A DNA stretch of 64,000 nucleotides from an uncultured Gammaproteobacteria bacterium (lineage in GTDB: Bacteria; Pseudomonadota; Gammaproteobacteria; JASBUN01): positions 366,298 through 430,297 of the forward strand of contig CAVZBR010000001.1 in assembly GCA_963773585.1 (NCBI GenBank), read 5' to 3'. A program made the translations under genes and the position numbers. Within the stretch, counting starts at the first letter, position 1; each line of letters opens with the position of its first letter. Below are positions 16,676 to 32,794 of the stretch, in pieces. The notes below the pieces were generated by a model, which was given only the letters and a program-made list of their open reading frames with translations, did not search any database and was not told where the DNA came from.

Positions 16676-17230
16676 TCAGAGTTTTTCGCCGTTGAGCGTG
16701 ACGTTTCCGGTGACGGTCACTGCGCGGCAGATGGTATCCAGCACCGGACAGTGCGATTCGACGGTCTCAGCGAGTTTGCGAATGGTTTCGGCATCTGCCG
16801 GGCTGTCGATGAAAGTCTCATAACGAACGTTGTCGTATCCGGCAGGAATATTTTCGTCCATAGCGAACAAACCACGCAGGTCCAGATATCCTTTGACAGC
16901 GACTTTTACGCTGGTGAGCTCGACTCCCATTACTGACGCGTAAGCGGAGTACATGATCTCCTGGCACGTGCCGAGGGCGGCAAGAACGAGCTCGACCGGG
17001 TTCATACCGGCGTCTTCGCCGCCCAGCTCCGGCGGCTCGTCGATTGTCAGGAGCGGGAATTCGCGCACTTTCGCCGTGCAACGCACCCCGCTTTGGAGTT
17101 CGGTTTCCGAGCGGAATACCAGCTTGGCCGCCTGGGGGTTGGCCTGGATTCGTCCCATTGTCTTGGTCAGGGCGGCTTTGACACGATCGTTCGCGGAAGT
17201 TTGTGTTGTGCTCTCTGGCGTAGCGCTCAT
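16676..17230 (-). CDS. OsmC/Ohr-family peroxiredoxin-like protein
   Basis: 184 aa with ..GGEDAGMNPVELVLAALGTCQ.. and ..HCPV.. motifs of OsmC. Confidence 0.75.
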   Translation of the reverse strand: MSATPESTTQTSANDRVKAALTKTMGRIQANPQAAKLVFRSETELQSGVRCTAKVREFPLLTIDEPPELGGEDAGMNPVELVLAALGTCQEIMYSAYASVMGVELTSVKVAVKGYLDLRGLFAMDENIPAGYDNVRYETFIDSPADAETIRKLAETVESHCPVLDTICRAVTVTGNVTLNGEKL

Positions 17231-18004
17231 TGGTGACTCCTCGACTCGGGCAAGTATTGGATTGATTTCCCCGTTCGGCCTTCAGTGCCGGGCTTGGGTA
17301 TGCAGACAAGAGCAGGCTGCATGCCAGGCTGTGCAGCAGGGACGTTCGAGTTGCGTTGGCCGCAGTGTGTTCTGTTCAGGCTGAACCGTAACGGGATGAT
17401 TGTCCGCTGTTTTTTCAGTCGAATAAGCGATTTTAACAAGCCAATATTCGGACAGGGCGCAGTTTTTCGATTCAAGAAGCGCGCCCGTAGATGTCACGTG
17501 GATAGCTCACGATGTGACAACGCAGTTGCAGGAGATGAACACTGGAGGGGGTAACCGGCGAAATCGTTTCTATGTCGAGCGATTACAACGTACCGCAGGT
17601 CAGAATAGGCGTTGATCGCCGACGTCGATATCCACGCGGAGCACCATGTGCGGGCACCTGGAAGCGACGGATCTTTCAAATCGTTGAGATGGGATGTATT
17701 CGAAACAGGCGCAATATTCCGGCGTTGGTACGGTTTGGTCCGCGGCGCACGTGCCTGCCGCGATACCGAAGAGCCTAAGACGGAGCGCTGTACTGTGATA
17801 TTCGATCTGCGGTAGGGATTGTTGCGGTTATCTATGGACCGGCGATCGGTATCGCAGTGCATGATGTGCGCCGGCTCATTCGTAGCCCTCGATGCGCCGC
17901 TTTGTCCCCGTCTCCTCACGCGATCGAGCGACCTTCAATGGGTTCGGTGCGGATACCAGCACCGGTGCGATTCCCAGTTAAGATGGGAGGCCGGAAGCAG
18001 ATCT

Positions 18005-22941: not shown

Positions 22942-23460
22942 ACATGCATTTGGCACGTACGTAGAACTACGTGGTCGCCCGATGCCCCAGCGCATCACGG
23001 GACTGACATACCGGATTCACTGCTCCGTCATGCTCCGAATCCTCCTGCTTTAGCTCGCTAGCCCCTGGTTGCCGTGGACCCCTGACTTTACCGAAGCACG
23101 CATATTTGCGTATTTACCTACCCACTAGCCAGGTCTAAGTTTATTCGTTACTCGTGGCTCGCAACGCGCCTGACCTTTGCGTAACCGCGTTGCATATATC
23201 CAACGCCGTTGAGAAGTCGCGTGTTGGTCGCGCCAATCTGCGGGGGACTAAGACGCGTCTTCATGGGGAAACGCCAGATGGTTTGTAAGAGGTCTTGCGT
23301 TATCTCCGTTTGCGCGGCCCAGTGACCGACGGCTATCCGAGAAATCCAAGGCGACCGGGCACTTGGAAGACGACGGGATTGATCACGTCGTCCACCATGG
23401 AAACTTATCGTGCTCACGATGGGCGCACTGACCAGTAATGACATGGGGGATCGTGCGTTG

Positions 23461-25413
23461 ATGCATCAGCTGACAGTATCGGAACACGCTCGCTTGGTTT
23501 ATTCCGCGCTGGAAAAGCCCGATGCGATCACGAATGATGTTTCTCCTGAGGTGGCCCGCTCCTGGCGTCGATGCCTAATCGACTATCAGCTTGACCCTGT
23601 TCGCCGAGCAGAGCCAGCGGTAGTCGAAAGGACCGATTTACGGCAGCGCCAGGAGCAGCTGGCGCCCTTGCTTGAATTCGCCAAATCCGAGATGACCAGC
23701 CTCTATCAACAGGTCGCTGGATCCGGATACGCCATTCTGCTCACCGACATGGACGGGGTGATCTTGAACTACGTCGGAGATCCACAGTTCACCGACGCGG
23801 CGATGCGCAGCGGGCTGCACAACGGCTCGGTCTGGAGTGAGGCCGCTCAAGGCACCAACGGCATGGGGACTTGCATCGCCATGAAGAAGCCGCTGGTCGT
23901 ACATCAGCACGAGCACTTCCTCAGCCGCCACACCGGGTTGACATGTTCCGCGGCACCGATCCGGGACCCCAGTGGAGAAATGATGGCGGTGCTCGACGCC
24001 TCATCTGAATCGCGCCTGGCACAGCAACACACCATGGTATTGGTCAACATGGCGGCGCAAACGATTGAGAATCGCATGTTCTTGGCTGCCTTCCGGGAAC
24101 ATTTCTTGATCCGATTCCATTCGCGCCCGGAGTTTGTCAGTACACTGGGCGAAGGCGCTATCGCCCTCGACGAAATCGGCATCATCTGTGGCGCGAACCG
24201 CAGCGCGCTGTTTCAGCTCGGTATACGCTTGGACAACCTGATCGGCTGCCCGGTCGAGAAGGTATTCGACGGCTCAATGAACACCCTGATCAAGAGTGCT
24301 CGCAAGCATGCCTACCATCCGATGGCGATCCGCAGCGCTTGTGATGGGCGACGTTTTTACGGGGCTGTACAACCACCTATCGACATTCCTTGTAAGACGG
24401 GTTTAAGACGTTTGTGGCGAAACCCGATCCGTACGGACCGCGAGCCATATGGCGAATGCAGGCTCCAGCGTCTGGATCTTGGTGATCCTGCTATGGCGCG
24501 CAACGTCGATTGCGCGCGCAAACTGCTGAACCGCAATATACCGTTGCTGTTATATGGCGAGACCGGCACCGGAAAGGGGATATTCGCTAAGGCACTTCAC
24601 GATGAAAGCGAACGTTCCTCAAAGCCATTTGTGGCAGTAAACTGCGCCGCGATTCCAGAGGCGCTGATCGAGAGCGAATTGTTCGGATATCGGCCAGGTG
24701 CATTCACTGGCGCAAACCGAAACGGCAGCCGGGGGAAAATTTTGCAGGCGGATGGCGGTACGTTGTTTTTGGATGAGATTGGGGATATGTCTTTGCATCT
24801 GCAAGCTCGATTATTGCGTGTTCTGGAGGAAAAGGAGGTAGTTCCGCTCGGTGGAGAGTCACCCGAAAAAGTGAACTTGGCCGTAATTAGCGCCACACAT
24901 CGTGAGCTTACCACGTTGATTTCGGACGGCCGGTTTCGAGAAGACCTTTATTATCGCTTGCACGGCATGGCGCTGACGATGCCTCCGTTGCGAGAGCGGC
25001 AGGACCGAAGAGCACTAATGCATGCGATTGCGCAAAATGAAGCCGGTAACGAGGAAATAGAACTAAGCGAAGAGGCCCTGGATATCCTGGAAAGTCAGGC
25101 TTGGCCGGGAAACATCCGGCAATTGTGCAATACGCTGCGTACGGTCTTGGCTTTTTGCGATGGCGACGTGATCAAAGCGGATGATCTCCCGGATGACCTG
25201 TGTCATGGTCCATCCGGACGCAATGCCGCCGAGAATTCAACTGCGTCCCAAGGGCAATTACTCGATCCGCTCGCCGCGGCTGAGTGCCGCGCGCTGCTCA
25301 GAGAGCTCAACAAAACGCGTTGGAATGTGGCGCAGCTGGCTCGAAACCTCAATATCAGCCGCAATACGCTATATAGAAAAATGCGGCGTCATGGCATTTG
25401 TCCGCCGCGATGA
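23461..25413 (+). CDS. sigma-54-dependent transcriptional activator, AcoR-type (GAF sensor + AAA+ sigma-54 interaction + Fis-type HTH), copy A
   Basis: ORF 23410..25413. GAF-like N-domain. GAFTGA, Walker A GETGTGKG and ESELFGY motifs. C-terminal HTH ..ISRNTLYRKMRRHGI... Start probably MHQL at 23461. Confidence 0.85.
   Translation: MHQLTVSEHARLVYSALEKPDAITNDVSPEVARSWRRCLIDYQLDPVRRAEPAVVERTDLRQRQEQLAPLLEFAKSEMTSLYQQVAGSGYAILLTDMDGVILNYVGDPQFTDAAMRSGLHNGSVWSEAAQGTNGMGTCIAMKKPLVVHQHEHFLSRHTGLTCSAAPIRDPSGEMMAVLDASSESRLAQQHTMVLVNMAAQTIENRMFLAAFREHFLIRFHSRPEFVSTLGEGAIALDEIGIICGANRSALFQLGIRLDNLIGCPVEKVFDGSMNTLIKSARKHAYHPMAIRSACDGRRFYGAVQPPIDIPCKTGLRRLWRNPIRTDREPYGECRLQRLDLGDPAMARNVDCARKLLNRNIPLLLYGETGTGKGIFAKALHDESERSSKPFVAVNCAAIPEALIESELFGYRPGAFTGANRNGSRGKILQADGGTLFLDEIGDMSLHLQARLLRVLEEKEVVPLGGESPEKVNLAVISATHRELTTLISDGRFREDLYYRLHGMALTMPPLRERQDRRALMHAIAQNEAGNEEIELSEEALDILESQAWPGNIRQLCNTLRTVLAFCDGDVIKADDLPDDLCHGPSGRNAAENSTASQGQLLDPLAAAECRALLRELNKTRWNVAQLARNLNISRNTLYRKMRRHGICPPR
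23515..24310. repeat. about 0.8-kb segment near-identical (inverted) to 28607..29415
   Basis: The reverse complement of 29341-29415 and of ORFs 28747..29028 and 29001..29294 is identical or near-identical at the DNA and protein level to 23515-23590 and ORFs 23904..24185 and 23638..23931. Encoded residues 20-290 of the two activators differ at only about 4 positions. Confidence 0.8.
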
Positions 25414-25804
25414 GTACTGAGGGCATCTCGTTATCGATGAGCGTGGGCTGGAAATCGACAGATCTGGCGCGCCAGCACATCTAACTGTGTTCGATAGTGG
25501 GACGGGCGCCATTTTTGGCGACCGGAAATTCGGCTGCCGCAATGGCCCGGAAATCCTTCCCGTCCGCCGGGCAGTTCCACCCAGGTGGGCGTTCCCGCGG
25601 GCAAGAAAACGCCACGGACGCACGCCCGGTCACGTTACCTGCCGGTTTTCCCGGCCGACCGGCCGGAGGCGTCTTTGCAAAGGCCATCCAGAAAACAGAG
25701 TGACACTTTGTCCGCAATGCCCCAGGTTTGGCGCACCGGCAAAACCCTAGGGCGAGCCAAGGGCTGACGGGTCGTGCATTCACGCCCAGCAGTGCAATGG
25801 CACA

Positions 25805-25819
25805 CTAGTTGCTCATCTG
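25805..25819 (+). promoter_or_regulatory. sigma-54 (-24/-12) promoter
   Basis: TGGCAC-ACTAG-TTGCT is a near-perfect match to the TGGCACG-N4-TTGCW consensus. Oriented toward the ATP-grasp gene about 440 nt downstream. Confidence 0.6.
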
Positions 25820-26254
25820 AAGCCACGGATGTCTGCGGCCGTGCAAGCAGGCGCGGAGGGCGGTCCAAAGGTGAAGGTGCTCGCCAGGATCTCTTGCCAC
25901 TCAGCGGAGCTGTGCAGGCCGCTACGTAGGTGTTGATCTCATGCCGGGCGAGCCGCCGACAGGGTGGTTGGCCCTGGCGTGGAGAACGCGAAGTTGACTG
26001 GATGGAACCGCAACATCTAAAAATGGCCACGAATCTGAGTTGGGAATTGATTGTGCCGTGGAATCCGTCCGTTCATAACGGATCCGGTGGTGCAAGGCAG
26101 CGTCTTTGCCGCTTTTTTGCAGTTGCTGCGGAAGATAGGGCGTCGAAGCAGGTATCTGAACACATTTTCGAGTTCCGTCCATGGTGTCGCTAGGCGGCGG
26201 GTGCCGGTTGTTGCGTCGTACAAGCTTGACGGGAAACGACCTGGAGGTGCGTTC

Positions 26255-27268
26255 GTGCGAATCTTGGTGTTCGAGTATGAGACTGGCGGTGGGTTGCTCG
26301 GTAAACCATTGCATCCGGCTTTGGTTCAAGAGGGCGAACTCATGCTACACGCGCTGCTGCGCGACCTCGTTGAACTGCAAGAGATCGAAATCCTGAGCTT
26401 GCGCGACGGCCGACTTCCGCGTCTGGCGTTTCCGGCCAAGGTGCGCCAGTTGTATCACAGCCGCGAATTGGGGGCCCAGTTCAAGCGTGGTCTGGCGGAA
26501 TGTGACGCCGTGTGGCCGGTGGCACCGGACAGCAACGGAACCCTTGAACGGCTGTCCATCGAGACGTTGGAACACCATCGGGTGCTGATTGGCAGCCGTC
26601 CCGATGCGATTGCCGTCGCGGCGAGCGTACTGCGTACCGCTCGAACGCTGGAGCGGCACGGGATACCGGTAGTGCCCGCCGTAAGTGGTGCCGACGTACT
26701 TGCCGGGGCGGCACTCCAAGATCCGCCATGGCTCGTCAAGCCCGACGCCGGGACCAGTTACACGGGCGCGCGCCTTGTGCGCGGTGAACGGGAACTACTC
26801 GAGTTCCTGCAACAATCCCGTAACGCTGAAGAGTTGGTGGTGCAGCCCTACGTGGTCGGTACCCATGCCAGTTTGTCGGTACTGGCGGGAAATGGGATGT
26901 GCCAACTGCTCGCTTGCAACGCGCAGCGTATGGTTGTGGTGAATGATGAATTTCGGCTCGCCCGTTGCGTGGTGAACGGCATACAGTCCGATCGTCTGCA
27001 GTTCGAGGAACTAGCGCGCGCCGTTTCTTCCGTACTGCCCGGCTTGTGGGGCTACTTCGGAATCGACCTCATGCTGACGGAGGCTGGTCCCCGGATATTG
27101 GGCGTAAGTGCGCGCCTGAATACCTGCTACGCAGGAATCACACACGCGTTGGATCTCAATGTCGCCGGAGTGGTGCTTGGATTGTTGAAGGACAATGCGC
27201 AGGCGCCACACATCACGCAGTCCGCCCAGACGGTTGCGCTGGACATGGAGGCTGTGGATTTCGCGTGA
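26255..27268 (+). CDS. ATP-grasp domain protein (ATP-grasp_3/MfnD-like predicted carboligase)
   Basis: GTG 26255 follows a GGAGGTG RBS. N-terminal MRILVFEYETGGGL.. motif typical of this ATP-grasp subfamily. About 338 aa. The upstream part of ORF 26051.. lacks coding character. Confidence 0.55.
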   Translation: MRILVFEYETGGGLLGKPLHPALVQEGELMLHALLRDLVELQEIEILSLRDGRLPRLAFPAKVRQLYHSRELGAQFKRGLAECDAVWPVAPDSNGTLERLSIETLEHHRVLIGSRPDAIAVAASVLRTARTLERHGIPVVPAVSGADVLAGAALQDPPWLVKPDAGTSYTGARLVRGERELLEFLQQSRNAEELVVQPYVVGTHASLSVLAGNGMCQLLACNAQRMVVVNDEFRLARCVVNGIQSDRLQFEELARAVSSVLPGLWGYFGIDLMLTEAGPRILGVSARLNTCYAGITHALDLNVAGVVLGLLKDNAQAPHITQSAQTVALDMEAVDFA

Positions 27269-27506: not shown

Positions 27507-29471
27507 TCACCGTGGTGGTTGGATGTCGTAGCGCTTCATCTTGCGGTAGAGCGTATTACGGCTTAGGTTGAGTGCGCGCGCGACCTTCGCCACGTTCCAG
27601 CGCATCGTCTCAAGTTCATGCAGGAGCGCCGCGCGCTCGGCTTTTGCAAGCGGATCGCATGTGTGGGGCAGGGACGCGCCTTCCCCCGCCGCTGGCAACG
27701 TGGCAATTCTGCCCCTGCGGAACTCGTCGGGCAGGTCATCAACCTCGATGATCGTACGTTCGGACAGGGCCACTAGGGTGCGCAGCGTGTTGCAAAGTTG
27801 GCGTATGTTCCCCGGCCACTCGTATTGGCAAAGTAGATCGAGCGCTTCGTCACTTAGCTGGACATTTGGGCCATCGCGTGTTTCTTGTCGAACGATTTCG
27901 TGTATCAGTGTCCGACAGTCGCGGCGTTCGCGCAAAGGGGGAATGGTGATCGCGACACCGTGCAACCGGTAATAAAGATCGTCTCTAAAGTGGCCCTCGG
28001 CACTCAGCTGGGTAAGATTTTGGTGCGTGGCACTGATTACCGCGATGTCCACCTTTTCAGGAGTCTCCCCGCCAAGCGGAACCACCTCCTTTTCTTCCAG
28101 GACACGCAGCAAGCGCGCCTGCAGATGCAGGGGCATGTCGCCAATCTCGTCCAGGAACAAAGTGCCGCCATCAGCTTGTAGTATCTTTCCACGGCTGCCG
28201 CGCCGGTTTGCGCCAGTGAAGGCGCCGGGACGGTAGCCGAAGAGTTCGCTTTCAATCAGCGTCTCGGGGATTGAGGCGCAATTGACCGCGACGAAAGGTT
28301 TCGTGGCGCGCTCGCCGGCATCGTGAAAGGCTTTAGCGAAAACCCCTTTTCCGGTTCCGGTCTCACCGTACAGCAGCAACGGAATATTGCGATTCAACAG
28401 CTTGTGCGCGCGATGAATATTGCGCGCCATGGTCGGGTCTCCGAGATCAAGACGACTCAGGCGGCTGTGATCTGGAGCCGTACTACCGTCGGAGTTCGGC
28501 GTCGGGCGCGGCCTAATGGAAACGATTTTTCGAGTAACCTCCTCGGCGTGGGCGGGTAGTTGCACTACGGCGAAGAATCGTCTGCCATCAACGGCTCCGT
28601 GCAACGGCATAGGATGAAAACAATGCTTGCGAGCACTCTTGATCAGGGTGTTCATTGAGCCGTCGAATACCTTCTCGACCGGGCAGCCGATCAGGTTGTC
28701 CAAGCGTATACCGAGCTGAAACAGCGCGCTGCGGTTCGCGCCACAGATGATGCCGGTTTCGTCGAGGGCGATAGCGCCTTCGCCCAGTGTACTGACAAAC
28801 TCCGGGCGCGAATGGAATCGGATCAAGAAATGTTCCCGGAAGGCAGCCAAGAACATGCGATTCTCAATCGTTTGCGCCGCCATGTTGACCAATACTATGG
28901 TGTGTTGCTGTGCCAGGCGCGATTCGGATGAGGCGTCGAGCACCGCCATCATTTCTCCACTGGGGCCCCGGATCGGTGCCGCGGAACATGTCAACCCGGT
29001 GTGGCGGCTGAGGAAGTGCTCGTGCTGATGTACGACCAGCGGCTTCTTCATGGCGATGCAAGTCCCCATGCCGTTGGTGCCTTGAGCGGCCTCACTCCAG
29101 ACCGAGCCGTTGTGCAGCCCGCTGCGCATCGCCGCGTCGGTGAACTGTGGATCTCCGACGTAGTTCAAGATCACCCCGTCCATGTCGGTGAGCAGAATGG
29201 CGTATCCGGATCCAGCGACCTGTTGATAGAGGCTGGTCATCTCGGATTTGGCGAATTCAAGCAAGGGCGCCAGCTGCTCCTGGCGCTGCCGTAAATCGGT
29301 CCTTTCGACTACCGCTGGCTCTGCTCGGCGAACAGGGTCAAGCTGATAGTCGATTAGGCATCGACGCCAGGAGCGGGCCACCTCAGGAGAAACATCATTC
29401 GTGATCGCATCGGGCTTTTCCACGACCGACTGAACCAGTCGGGCATGTTCGGACGCTGTCGAATCGCGCAT
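27507..29471 (-). CDS. sigma-54-dependent transcriptional activator, AcoR-type, copy B
   Basis: 654 aa with the same architecture as copy A. The N-terminal roughly 290 aa are near-identical to copy A. The AAA+/HTH part is about 80-85% identical at the protein level, with many synonymous differences. Confidence 0.85.
   Translation of the reverse strand: MRDSTASEHARLVQSVVEKPDAITNDVSPEVARSWRRCLIDYQLDPVRRAEPAVVERTDLRQRQEQLAPLLEFAKSEMTSLYQQVAGSGYAILLTDMDGVILNYVGDPQFTDAAMRSGLHNGSVWSEAAQGTNGMGTCIAMKKPLVVHQHEHFLSRHTGLTCSAAPIRGPSGEMMAVLDASSESRLAQQHTIVLVNMAAQTIENRMFLAAFREHFLIRFHSRPEFVSTLGEGAIALDETGIICGANRSALFQLGIRLDNLIGCPVEKVFDGSMNTLIKSARKHCFHPMPLHGAVDGRRFFAVVQLPAHAEEVTRKIVSIRPRPTPNSDGSTAPDHSRLSRLDLGDPTMARNIHRAHKLLNRNIPLLLYGETGTGKGVFAKAFHDAGERATKPFVAVNCASIPETLIESELFGYRPGAFTGANRRGSRGKILQADGGTLFLDEIGDMPLHLQARLLRVLEEKEVVPLGGETPEKVDIAVISATHQNLTQLSAEGHFRDDLYYRLHGVAITIPPLRERRDCRTLIHEIVRQETRDGPNVQLSDEALDLLCQYEWPGNIRQLCNTLRTLVALSERTIIEVDDLPDEFRRGRIATLPAAGEGASLPHTCDPLAKAERAALLHELETMRWNVAKVARALNLSRNTLYRKMKRYDIQPPR
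28607..29415. repeat. inverted copy of 23515..24310
   Basis: See the partner repeat. Identity ends abruptly at ..cgcaagcat (24308 / 28611). Confidence 0.8.
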
Positions 29472-31686: not shown

Positions 31687-32199
31687 CTAGCGTACCGGGA
31701 TCAGCGCATAGCCACGGTTTTGGTAACCCATGAGCGATATCCAGCTGTTTCCAACAACCTTTACGCCAGGATGTATCGTGTCGGGTTGGACGTGCAACAT
31801 CTTGGCGGCGACTCCGCACTGTTCGAGCGTGACATTGTTCATCTTGGACAGCTTGTCCAACACTTGTCCTATCTGGACTGAGACTTGCTTCTGCTCCGGG
31901 TTCAGTGCACTTCGATCCGTTGATATATACGGGGTCGCGGGGCCCCGGAATGCCAGCACGAATACCGGTTTGACGCCTTGCGACTGCACCGATTCCGCGG
32001 TTTCGGCTATCAAGTTGAGGTAAAACTTGAGTTTCTGCGGGTTTCCTGTGGTGATGTCAAAAACGGCGTGCGTTTCCGTCAGGCGGGTAAGTGCAGCGTG
32101 ATCATCTGCGGGAGCGTTCGCTGCCGATATGGTATGTACGAAACTTAAGCACGCCAACGCTACCACCGTATGGACGTATCGGATGGGCGATCGAAACAT
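31687..32199 (-). CDS. DsrE/DsrF/YchN-like (COG1416) periplasmic protein
   Basis: Signal peptide ..LACLSFVHTISA. C-terminal ..LEQCGVAAKMLHV..GVKVVGNSWISLMGYQNRGYALIPV resembles the COG1416 DsrE-like C-terminus. Confidence 0.5.
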   Translation of the reverse strand: MFRSPIRYVHTVVALACLSFVHTISAANAPADDHAALTRLTETHAVFDITTGNPQKLKFYLNLIAETAESVQSQGVKPVFVLAFRGPATPYISTDRSALNPEQKQVSVQIGQVLDKLSKMNNVTLEQCGVAAKMLHVQPDTIHPGVKVVGNSWISLMGYQNRGYALIPVR

Positions 32200-32794
32200 G
32201 GTGGCACCTCCAGAGGCTTATATTATTTTTGTGTACTAAAGGTCGAGCAATATCCGTGCCTGACGGGCGCGTTGGGGCTCGAGTGCCACGGGTAAGGCCG
32301 ATCGCCGGGCGCGTGCTGGAATTGCCGTTTTGGGTGTGCGTGTCAGCGGTCGCTAGGCGTTGCACGCATGTGTCGTTGTGTCCTATGAATGGCACATATC
32401 TCGCGTGACGCCGCGCCCGCAACAGTGGTGTCGGATGCTACTTGGACGGTTGCGCTATACGTCAGACGCGAAGCTGTAAGAGCGCTGGAACCGGCGCCAG
32501 CGCTATGGGTTCATCGATCGCGCAGCAAACGATTCGCACGAATGGTACCGGATGGCGAAAGAAGGGCCTTCCGGCACCAGGCCTGTCCCTATGCGACTCC
32601 TTGGGTGCAGGCATGGTCTGATTCGCAGCCCTCATCAGGCTGTATTTTCCCGGTCGTGTTCCACCGGCAGACTCTCTCGTTCCCACTCTGGATACCCATC
32701 GTGGAGGCGAGTGGCCTGACGGCCGTGGGCGCAAAGTGCGGCGACCGCATAATACTGGCTTCAGACTCTTCATCCCGGGCATCGGAGTAGAATT

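Follow-up and report, generated by a model that had tools for sequence, protein, structure and literature searches.

Introduction

The closest described relatives of the locus reported here are activators of the AcoR/MimR/AcxR type, enhancer-binding proteins whose genes adjoin a sigma-54 promoter with a palindrome about 80 nucleotides (nt) upstream. We analyzed a 64,000-nt stretch of DNA from an uncultured Gammaproteobacteria bacterium (contig CAVZBR010000001.1, positions 366,298 to 430,297; hereafter the window), in which two activator genes of identical domain architecture flank a sigma-54 promoter, P1, that is followed by a long leader and a gene for an ATP-grasp protein. In our favored explanation, to which we assign a probability of roughly 60%, P1 is a functional promoter of a one-carbon (C1) regulon, the locus is the stump of a tetrahydromethanopterin (H4MPT)/methylofuran cofactor cluster, the leader is a rearrangement scar, and the ATP-grasp protein is a catalytically crippled but retained relative of the ligase MfnD.

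AcoR, MimR and AcxR control acetoin, acetone or propane genes, and AcoR/MimR-like members that are 40% identical to the window activators and share the same promoter geometry control alcohol dehydrogenase, short-chain dehydrogenase/reductase (SDR) and monooxygenase genes. In contrast, the predicted targets in the window and its closest relatives are C1 genes, comprising those for the H4MPT/methylofuran cofactors, a pyrroloquinoline quinone (PQQ) dehydrogenase and a glutathione-type formaldehyde dehydrogenase. The window further departs from the AcoR/MimR/AcxR systems in carrying two paralogous activators that have a gene-converted common sensor and different DNA-binding domains. In Escherichia coli, the enzyme-derived co-regulators DhaK and DhaL, both active enzymes, act on DhaR, which itself acts with sigma-70. 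The DhaK/DhaL–DhaR system may offer an analogy for a protein with an enzyme fold that is encoded next to, and would act on, an activator whose N-terminal sensor is GAF-like. RedR1 and RedR2, encoded at a single locus of Aromatoleum anaerobium, are a near-identical pair of sigma-54 activators that control several sigma-54 promoters (PMC10084136). RedR1 and RedR2 differ only in the N-terminal tail, whereas the window activators have near-identical sensors and diverged AAA+ and helix-turn-helix (HTH) halves (74% nt identity). A common sensor joined to diverged C-terminal halves suggests that one signal may be routed to different promoters.

The ATP-grasp protein has relatives in cofactor biosynthesis. 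MfnD of Methanocaldococcus jannaschii (MJ0815), the tyramine-L-glutamate ligase of methanofuran biosynthesis, and bacterial homologs such as Mfla_1650 ('orf1') of methylotrophs contain the same pair of preATP-grasp_3 and ATP-grasp_3 domains, and homologs in H4MPT/methylofuran clusters have a Hydantoinase_A-type neighbor. The glutamate ligases MyfA and MyfB lengthen the polyglutamate chain of methylofuran (Hemmann et al., PMC8141765), and several methylotrophs encode a separate MfnD homolog, such as Mfla_1650, that has been placed in methylofuran biosynthesis (PMC8141765). MyfA (OrfY) and MyfB (Orf5) belong to the same superfamily and gene clusters as these homologs (L002–L004; PMC8141765) but are distinct paralogs: the similarity of the window protein to the product of the gene in the MyfA position is not meaningful (38 residues, E = 0.016), and MyfB is RimK/MptN-like, unlike the window protein. 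Compared with MfnD itself, the window protein scores far under the family cut-off (49.8 versus 400), is encoded outside a cofactor cluster, and has the Glu and Asn ligands replaced.

P1 and its putative enhancer site

We compared the window with a syntenic relative, a single locus (L001/L005) in the Gammaproteobacteria metagenome-assembled genome (MAG) MFD01721.bin.1.106, whose ATP-grasp protein is 88% identical to that of the window. The promoter region contains two elements:

25798–25813, + strand: sigma-54 −24/−12 promoter P1, TGGCACactagTTGCT, the sole exact consensus match in the window and identical in L001
25718–25735, + strand: palindromic upstream activator site TGCCCCAggttTGGCGCA, consensus TGCGCCA-N4-TGGCGCA, beginning 80 nt 5′ of the −24 element

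P1 scores 11 of 11 against the consensus TGGCACN5TTGCW, with its GG and GC doublets exactly 10 nt apart. The original prediction had recognized this motif and its orientation toward the ATP-grasp gene, both of which we recover on the same strand and conserved in L001, and had set it at 25805–25819, about 7 nt to the right of its actual position. Dinucleotide shuffles of the window contain 0.13 exact matches per window, with at least one match in 13 of 100 shuffles, and the motif on its own is only modestly significant and suggestive. We take P1 as real because it is conserved in L001, rather than because of the motif alone. The P1 16-mer and approximately 40 nt on its 5′ side are identical in the two genomes, where coding regions are 84–93% identical and other intergenic regions 58–71%. 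The wider block at 25681–25825 is 88% identical, and the stretch immediately around P1 (25790–25819) is 97% identical. The −12 GC doublet occupies 25811–25812, and taking C 25812 as position −12 would set the transcription start near 25824.

The palindrome recurs, with at most two arm mismatches, 80–81 nt 5′ of a sigma-54 consensus in L001 and in the H4MPT/methylofuran cluster loci L002 and L004, there at the head of the H4MPT operon, and in the intergenic DNA of these three loci it is confined to that promoter-linked position. A scan of public metagenome contigs for a palindrome and a promoter separated by N60–65 matched three loci, and in two of them (L093 and L095) the arrangement lies directly 3′ of a gene for a 40%-identical MimR/AcoR-like activator, with the promoters facing genes for SDR, Zn-alcohol dehydrogenase and flavin monooxygenase enzymes. 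At this spacing, the palindrome looks like the enhancer geometry of the MimR/AcoR-like activator family and is likely to be a family-wide trait. From its conservation and architecture, we consider P1 a genuine sigma-54 promoter with an enhancer site, pointing at the ATP-grasp gene. The L093 (4201–4296) and L095 (5255–5350) arrangements have the palindrome 62–63 nt 5′ of TGGCAC-N5-TTGCT.

A displaced gene of the bacterial MfnD-like family

The gene downstream of P1 and its immediate surroundings comprise:

26255–27268, + strand: MfnD-like ATP-grasp gene, 337 amino acids (aa), GTG start, domains PF18301 and PF02655
26243–26247, + strand: Shine-Dalgarno (SD) sequence GGAGG, 7 nt before the GTG, conserved in L001
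27301–27402, + strand: Hydantoinase_A-type pseudogene remnant of about 35 codons ('VVAMTGELV'), detected by tblastn and blastn

The start proposed earlier, a GTG at 26255 behind a ribosome-binding site, agrees with the position of GGAGG and with the protein N-terminus MRILVFEYETGGG, which lines up with the N-termini of homologs. Pfam profiles identify the predicted PF02655 domain (ATP-grasp_3, E = 3e-21) alongside PF18301 (preATP-grasp_3, E = 3e-14), and the best NCBIfam match is MfnD_Meth (NF040722, tyramine-L-glutamate ligase) at the 49.8 bits given above; canonical bacterial homologs also fall under the archaeal equivalog cut-off of 400, at 77.5 and 85.9 bits. An AlphaFold2 (AF2) model of the protein has a mean predicted local distance difference test score (pLDDT) of 89 and a predicted template-modeling score (pTM) of 0.89, and its top Foldseek matches, at probability 1.0, are 3DF7, PylC, biotin carboxylases and Ddl.

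Homologs with 55–61% identity (P0003, P0004 and P0008) are all encoded inside H4MPT/methylofuran C1-transfer clusters, with a His_biosynth-type gene in divergent orientation on one side and, on the other, a Hydantoinase_A-type gene that overlaps their 3′ ends. Neighboring genes include mptG (GHMP kinase), mtdB, mch, fae, pabB and those for a RimK-type ligase, CitG, PTPS, an AA_kinase and 4-(hydroxymethyl)-2-furancarboxaldehyde phosphate (4HFCP) synthase. Across the 80 best loci, taken with one genome per species, H4MPT/methylofuran neighbors are present at 75. We found no H4MPT genes among the scanned window open reading frames (ORFs), and the lack of nearby partner enzymes that had been noted holds across the same ORFs; the window gene lies outside any cofactor cluster, and an MfnD equivalog would be expected inside one.

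Traces of such a cluster persist beyond the stop codon. The Hydantoinase_A-type remnant matches residues 44–78 of the L002/L003 protein by tblastn (E = 0.004 when window and L001 are searched, 1e-5 when the search is confined to intergenic DNA) and the L003 gene by blastn (E = 7e-4); it is undetected in the equivalent L001 spacer. Its place directly after the ATP-grasp gene indicates that the window gene came out of an H4MPT cluster. By sequence, the gene belongs to the bacterial MfnD-like family as a displaced member and is not the orphan ligase of unknown substrate in a biosynthetic system that had been proposed, a view that also conflicts with the loss of two Mg2+ ligands described below.

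Loss of metal ligands under purifying selection

Alignment of the family profile to D-Ala-D-Ala ligase (3R23) places family residues Asp271, Glu283 and Asn285 at the D/E/N positions of that enzyme. It is established for the ATP-grasp superfamily that D-Ala-D-Ala ligase holds Mg2+-ATP through these residues. The window protein (GIDLM...ILGVSARLNT) keeps Asp271 and replaces Glu with Gly283 and Asn with Ser285, and in the L001 protein the corresponding residues are Glu, Gly and Ile. Of the 95 full-length homologs compared, 93 have the Asn and 91 have Glu or Asp, and the combination of Gly with Ser or Ile occurs in the window and L001 only. The Asp, Glu and Asn triad characteristic of ATP-grasp enzymes, with its Glu-x-Asn on the last core strand, is therefore incomplete in the window protein, which retains Lys162 and Gln197, both invariant in the family.

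The ratio of nonsynonymous to synonymous substitution (dN/dS) between window and L001 is 0.21 for the ATP-grasp gene, compared with 0.05–0.17 for most neighbors and 0.24 for one hypothetical gene. Its 1014-nt ORF contains no indels or stops in either genome, and the adjacent 840-nt intergenic region has about 10 indels. The protein is under purifying selection and has been kept. Ligase activity is doubtful because two of three Mg2+ ligands are lost, and the window protein is probably no longer a tyramine/tyrosine-glutamate ligase.

We weighed a reading in which the protein is an active amide ligase of unknown substrate, the core of a self-contained small-molecule system under GAF/sigma-54 control. 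The intact ORF, good ribosome-binding site, confident ATP-grasp fold and purifying selection fit this reading, as do some activator-linked relatives that have all catalytic residues (L091) and an SD region that appears unsequestered (local folding z-scores of +1.2 to +1.6). We nevertheless judge it improbable, given that the Glu and Asn Mg2+ ligands are Gly and Ser in the window (Gly and Ile in L001) at positions near-invariant in the 95 homologs, that no partner enzymes are nearby, and that the usual context of the family is methylofuran/H4MPT biosynthesis and not a stand-alone pathway.

The D-E-N-R tetrad is intact in 77 of the 80 surveyed loci and broken in three: EGIR in L005 (the L001 locus), DGYR in L016 (Noviherbaspirillum malthae) and NENQ in L059 (a Janthinobacterium MAG). 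Exactly these three loci combine the presence of a MimR-type activator within 6 kb with a lack of H4MPT neighbors, a split with a chance of 1 in C(80,3), or ~1e-5, if kinship is ignored; L016 and L059 are sister lineages, leaving about two independent events. The window lineage falls among intact gammaproteobacterial copies in a distance tree, where L016/L059 lie near Burkholderiales copies, which implies at least two origins of degenerate, activator-linked copies. A search seeded with the L016 protein retrieved 119 relatives of Oxalobacteraceae type (P0219–P0337), among which 40 have a non-canonical tetrad (32 once conservative D/E swaps are excluded), with variants including DGYR, DGCR, DAHR, ERSR and DENQ. 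Seven proteins, with identity as low as 68%, share the DGYR form, a pattern that suggests that the replacement residues are under selection and not decaying at random.

The same module of a sigma-54 promoter, an MfnD-like gene and a convergent MimR-type activator is present in L091 (Glaciimonas, intact tetrad) and L092 (ERSR), bringing the total to at least five loci in two proteobacterial classes (window/L001, L016, L059, L091 and L092). In the four loci of Oxalobacteraceae type (L016, L059, L091 and L092), the module lies in islands that variously carry pqqABCDE and genes for a PQQ alcohol dehydrogenase, esterase D and a Zn-dependent (glutathione-type) dehydrogenase, and sigma-54 consensus sites precede several of these genes. 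Judged from these comparisons, the window locus is one case of a recurrent module that joins this activator family to an MfnD-like protein prone to catalytic-residue loss.

Such recurrence could instead point to a dedicated regulatory function, in which the degenerate MfnD-like protein is a pseudoenzyme partner of MimR-type activators that would bind ATP and/or a methylofuran-pathway or C1-related ligand, modulate the activity of the activators and, with its own gene under the same enhancer and promoter, close a feedback loop. This idea draws on the occurrence of the module in at least five loci of two classes, a tetrad broken in 3 of 3 activator-adjacent copies versus 0 of 77 others, at least two independent origins, the conserved DGYR replacement in seven proteins to 68% identity, and the combination of dN/dS 0.21, an intact fold and retained Lys162 and Gln197. 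We hold it as a tentative and rather unlikely alternative, since the tetrad is intact in the same module of L091, so that loss of catalysis is not universal, degeneration might be no more than a consequence of losing the partner enzymes, and the sister relationship of L016 and L059 reduces the count to about two independent events. Its broader form is likewise unlikely in our estimate: a recurrent, so far undescribed class of sigma-54-driven MfnD-like proteins that have repeatedly lost catalytic Mg2+ ligands and would serve as ligand- or ATP-sensing co-regulators or anti-activators of C1 activators, with the window lineage as one of its independent cases.

Two activators with a common sensor

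The genes on either side of P1 and the ATP-grasp gene form a related pair:

23410–25413, + strand: activator 1, with MimR_N-GAF-AAA+(GAFTGA)-HTH_8 architecture by Pfam/NCBIfam and an ortholog in L001
27507–29471, − strand: activator 2, architecture as activator 1 by Pfam and alignment, convergent with the ATP-grasp gene
23472–24377 and 28555–29460: inverted repeat of 906 nt, 95% identical, found by repeat search and covering the sensor-coding halves of both activators

Both proteins contain the GAF, Sigma54_activat, AAA_lid_14 and HTH_8 domains in Pfam and the motif 'GYRPGAFTGA', and MimR_N is annotated on the L001 orthologs. With their C-terminal Fis-type HTH, they have the features of MimR/AcoR-type enhancer-binding proteins, as the original prediction of two flanking GAF/sigma-54 activators had anticipated, and DhaR is among the top NCBIfam matches of both. 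Outside this lineage, their nearest relatives are P0101 (74%) and P0104 (67%), whose genes lie immediately 5′ of the PTPS-flavoprotein-DUF6513-DUF447-MfnB-AA_kinase arm of H4MPT/methylofuran clusters and were recovered from the sample series that also yielded the canonical ATP-grasp homologs.

Sigma-54 sites are also present in the canonical clusters. The L002 promoter TGGCACgctagTTGCT, 12 nt before mptG, is one spacer base apart from P1; an equivalent site precedes mptG in L004, the mptG-mtdB-...-fae operon being headed by such a promoter; and L086–L090 have sigma-54 consensus sites between the activator gene and PTPS. These positions suggest that the activator subfamily controls sigma-54-headed C1 cofactor operons. 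In L002 (1545–1575) and L004 (2539–2570), the promoter ends about 12 nt before the annotated mptG ATG, and either the mptG-led operon mRNA is near-leaderless or the mptG start is mis-called.

The DNA-binding domains of the two activators differ in their resemblance to that of a cluster regulator. In the HTH, compared over the last 60 residues, identity to the cluster activator of L003 is 73% for activator 2 ('WNVAKVARALNLSRNTLYRKMKR') and 58% for activator 1. Genes for a TetR protein and an AhpC/TSA-redoxin flank activator 2, as they do the L089 activator. Activator 2 is likely to be the ortholog of the cluster regulator and, because its HTH matches those of canonical cluster regulators, the binder of the P1 palindrome, and activator 1 appears to be a diverged duplicate with an HTH unlike canonical cluster regulators. 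A further probable activator paralog, the third in the source genome, is P0116 (657 aa, 58% identity).

The first ~300 residues of the two activators are ~99% identical. Their C-terminal halves are 74% identical in DNA, and in L001 the repeat is 96% identical. Four-way site patterns for the paralogs of window and L001 show that, at repeat-arm positions 51–831 (about 23522–24302 and 28630–29410), 51 of 51 informative sites group the paralogs within a genome, and at the arm edges 27 of 27 informative sites group the orthologs. The patterns indicate a sharply bounded gene-conversion tract that has acted independently in the window and L001 lineages. Such conversion would maintain a single sensor specificity in a pair of proteins whose DNA-binding domains differ. 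The dual control proposed earlier therefore holds insofar as two activators share a sensor, and needs refinement insofar as their DNA-binding domains differ and only the activator 2 HTH is canonical-like.

The leader as a probable rearrangement scar

Between the predicted transcription start and the ATP-grasp gene lies one further element:

25824–26254, + strand: predicted 5′ leader, ~431 nt, non-coding, running from the inferred start to the GTG

Its length agrees with the ~430 nt proposed earlier. The relative L001, at a synonymous divergence (dS) of ~0.27, provides a single pair for measuring leader conservation. Identity by thirds is 0.59, 0.78 and 0.83 (other intergenic regions 0.58–0.71). 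The first 150 nt are 59% identical, with several non-triplet indels, and the last 200 nt are 78–87% identical, compared with roughly 77% expected from dS; by this measure the 5′ 150 nt appear unconstrained and the 3′ 200 nt mildly conserved.

The region 25414–26254 contains no credible ORF, as had been predicted, and the listed ORFs of at least 20 aa have no Pfam match. The window/L001 alignment has seven leader indels, six of which would shift a reading frame, as well as in-frame stops. We rejected a small protein encoded in the leader since every ORF of at least 20 aa is broken by L001 indels or stops and none has a Pfam match. We also rejected a degraded gene of the H4MPT cluster (mptG, His_biosynth or others), for which tblastn and sensitive blastn with all cluster genes returned nothing in the leader and only the Hydantoinase_A remnant farther 3′, and a repeat or mobile element, of which there is no second copy within the window.

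A riboswitch or small RNA (sRNA) had been suggested for the leader, along with a small hairpin, tccgtt-cat-aacgga, that we locate at 26068–26082. In this account, the leader would act as a riboswitch or attenuator, or else as a sigma-54-dependent sRNA ending at a hairpin and U-run at 26092–26118, and expression of the ATP-grasp gene would then require anti-termination or a second promoter. The conservation of the 3′ 200 nt above that of other intergenic regions (58–71%), terminator-like sites at 26092–26110 and two compensatory pairs in a two-sequence consensus fold, where covariation is uninformative with two sequences, are the features that favor it. Opposing it, no Rfam family matched anywhere in the window at gathering thresholds, and a permissive search (E up to 5) over 25300–26400 gave one match, a spurious snoRNA at E = 3.2. 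Folding of the whole leader is no better than that of shuffled sequences (z = −0.78), with z about −1.1 around the hairpin (−1.15, −1.07), and the minimum-energy folds differ between window and L001. The terminator stem has 5–6 bp, with 2.2 such sites expected by chance in the region, and no sigma-70-like promoter was found downstream in the leader or near the ATP-grasp gene. In four other activator-linked loci, the promoter lies 25–50 nt before the start codon, which implies that the family needs no leader element. We find a regulatory RNA here highly improbable. Structured RNA was rejected because stability is no better than shuffled and the folds differ between the two genomes, as the lack of Rfam matches and the unconstrained 5′ 150 nt also suggest; a weak attenuator at 26092–26118 is compatible with the two sequences compared. 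The 100 nt nearest the SD sequence (z = +1.16, +1.64) point to an open, unsequestered ribosome-binding site.

Because it has no homology to cluster genes, Rfam match or extra stability, its 5′ half is unconstrained, and leaders are short in four other loci, the leader probably represents a rearrangement scar, and any cis-regulatory content would be weak.

A proposed history and role of the locus

Assembly of a canonical order from L002, L003, L086 and L089 provides a reference for the window. On the left, a sigma-54 promoter precedes mptG-mtdB-myfA-mch-myfB-citG-fae-PTPS, all rightward, followed by His_biosynth leftward; in the middle, an mfnD-like gene, the Hydantoinase_A-type gene (HydA), pabB and AA_kinase run rightward; and on the right, mfnB, DUF447, DUF6513, flavoprotein and PTPS run leftward, with a sigma-54 promoter and then the activator gene, also leftward, at the right end. 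Two deletions, one from just after the mptG start to His_biosynth and another from inside HydA to the second PTPS, would yield exactly the window order of sigma-54 promoter, non-homologous DNA, mfnD-like gene, HydA fragment and convergent activator. A small hint of descent from an mptG promoter comes from L001 (9454–9500), in which ATG-GAT-ATC-CGC (MDIR), with no mptG following, occupies the position of the MptG start ATG-GAA-ATT-CGC (MEIR) of L002; in the window counterpart, ATG is changed to ACG.

In the explanation we favor, P1 would belong to a C1 regulon (formaldehyde/methanol oxidation, H4MPT/methylofuran) under MimR/AcoR-type GAF enhancer-binding proteins. A flanking activator, most likely activator 2, would bind the palindrome and, with its MimR_N-GAF sensor occupied by an effector that we infer to be a C1 alcohol or aldehyde, would remodel sigma-54 RNA polymerase at P1, and the transcript would run through the ~431-nt leader into the ATP-grasp ORF. 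The locus would then represent the stump of an H4MPT/methylofuran cluster, with an mptG-type operon promoter fused via junk DNA to an mfnD-like gene. The protein would keep its fold and most likely have a non-catalytic or altered role linked to the regulon, because two of its Mg2+ ligands are lost and purifying selection persists.

Several observations weigh against this explanation. An exact sigma-54 motif is expected by chance in ~13% of windows of this size; the palindrome geometry is general to the activator family (L093, L095) and is not proof of descent from an mptG promoter; and the MDIR/MEIR resemblance at the start codon spans 4 residues only. The 3′ leader is slightly above neutral by the dS yardstick, in a single-pair comparison, and not clearly neutral, and the weak hairpin and U-run at 26092–26118 include one compensatory change (G·U to C-G). 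Loss of activity is read from residues, and the dN/dS of 0.21 shows that the protein still matters.

A simpler history would leave promoter, leader and ATP-grasp gene as decaying, functionless leftovers of a lost H4MPT cluster. The Hydantoinase_A remnant, the junk-like 5′ leader, the loss of catalytic residues, a dN/dS for the ATP-grasp gene that is second-highest of ten syntenic genes compared, and the absence of a canonical copy from the genome of the relative among the 80 best loci are all in keeping with such decay. It is nonetheless very doubtful: the 1014-nt ORF is free of stops and indels across a dS of 0.27, against ~10 indels in the neighboring 840 nt, at 0.21 its dN/dS lies well short of 1, conservation of the promoter and enhancer block clearly exceeds the neutral level, and the module recurs in other lineages.

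P1 and its activator pair are a known kind of system, and what appears undescribed is the connection of the activators with C1 cofactor genes, together with the recurring MfnD-like partner and its degenerate active site; among the papers searched, none relevant was found on H4MPT genes under sigma-54 control or on a part played by MimR-type regulators in C1 metabolism. A MimR/AcoR subfamily appears to control H4MPT/methylofuran and formaldehyde/methanol oxidation genes via sigma-54, which, if confirmed, would provide a handle on the switching of C1 oxidation in non-model Gamma- and Betaproteobacteria. A methylofuran-pathway ligase homolog seems to have been captured beside activators at least two times, losing metal ligands under selection, and is a candidate pseudoenzyme. 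The locus also offers an example of a long leader that probably arose as a deletion scar, a caution against reading every long 5′ untranslated region as a riboswitch.

Other sigma-54-like sites and neighboring genes

A second candidate promoter is conserved within a diverged intergenic region:

32246–32261, − strand: sigma-54-like promoter P2, AGGCACggataTTGCT (AGGCATggataTTGCT in L001)

P2 lies ~45 nt 5′ of an operon (nearest gene 31687–32199, −) encoding a DsrE-like protein, a 217-aa hypothetical protein and a TlpA-like redoxin, and is a possible target of the other activator; we looked for an enhancer motif common to P1 and P2 and found none. A third sigma-54-like site, TGGCATgcagcCTGCT, is at 17311–17326 (−), ~80 nt before an OsmC-like gene (16676–17230, −) that is followed by a gene for a FadL/TodX-type outer-membrane protein. 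This third site is similar to those that precede PQQ dehydrogenase genes in L016, L059 and L092 (TGGCA[CT]GCTAA[AC]TGCT). In L001 (480–1853), genes for an SBP56-family (methanethiol-oxidase-type) protein and a glycine-cleavage H protein lie just 5′ of the shared acyl-CoA dehydrogenase/FixL-FixJ-like block, where the window instead has redoxin, OsmC-like and FadL-like genes.

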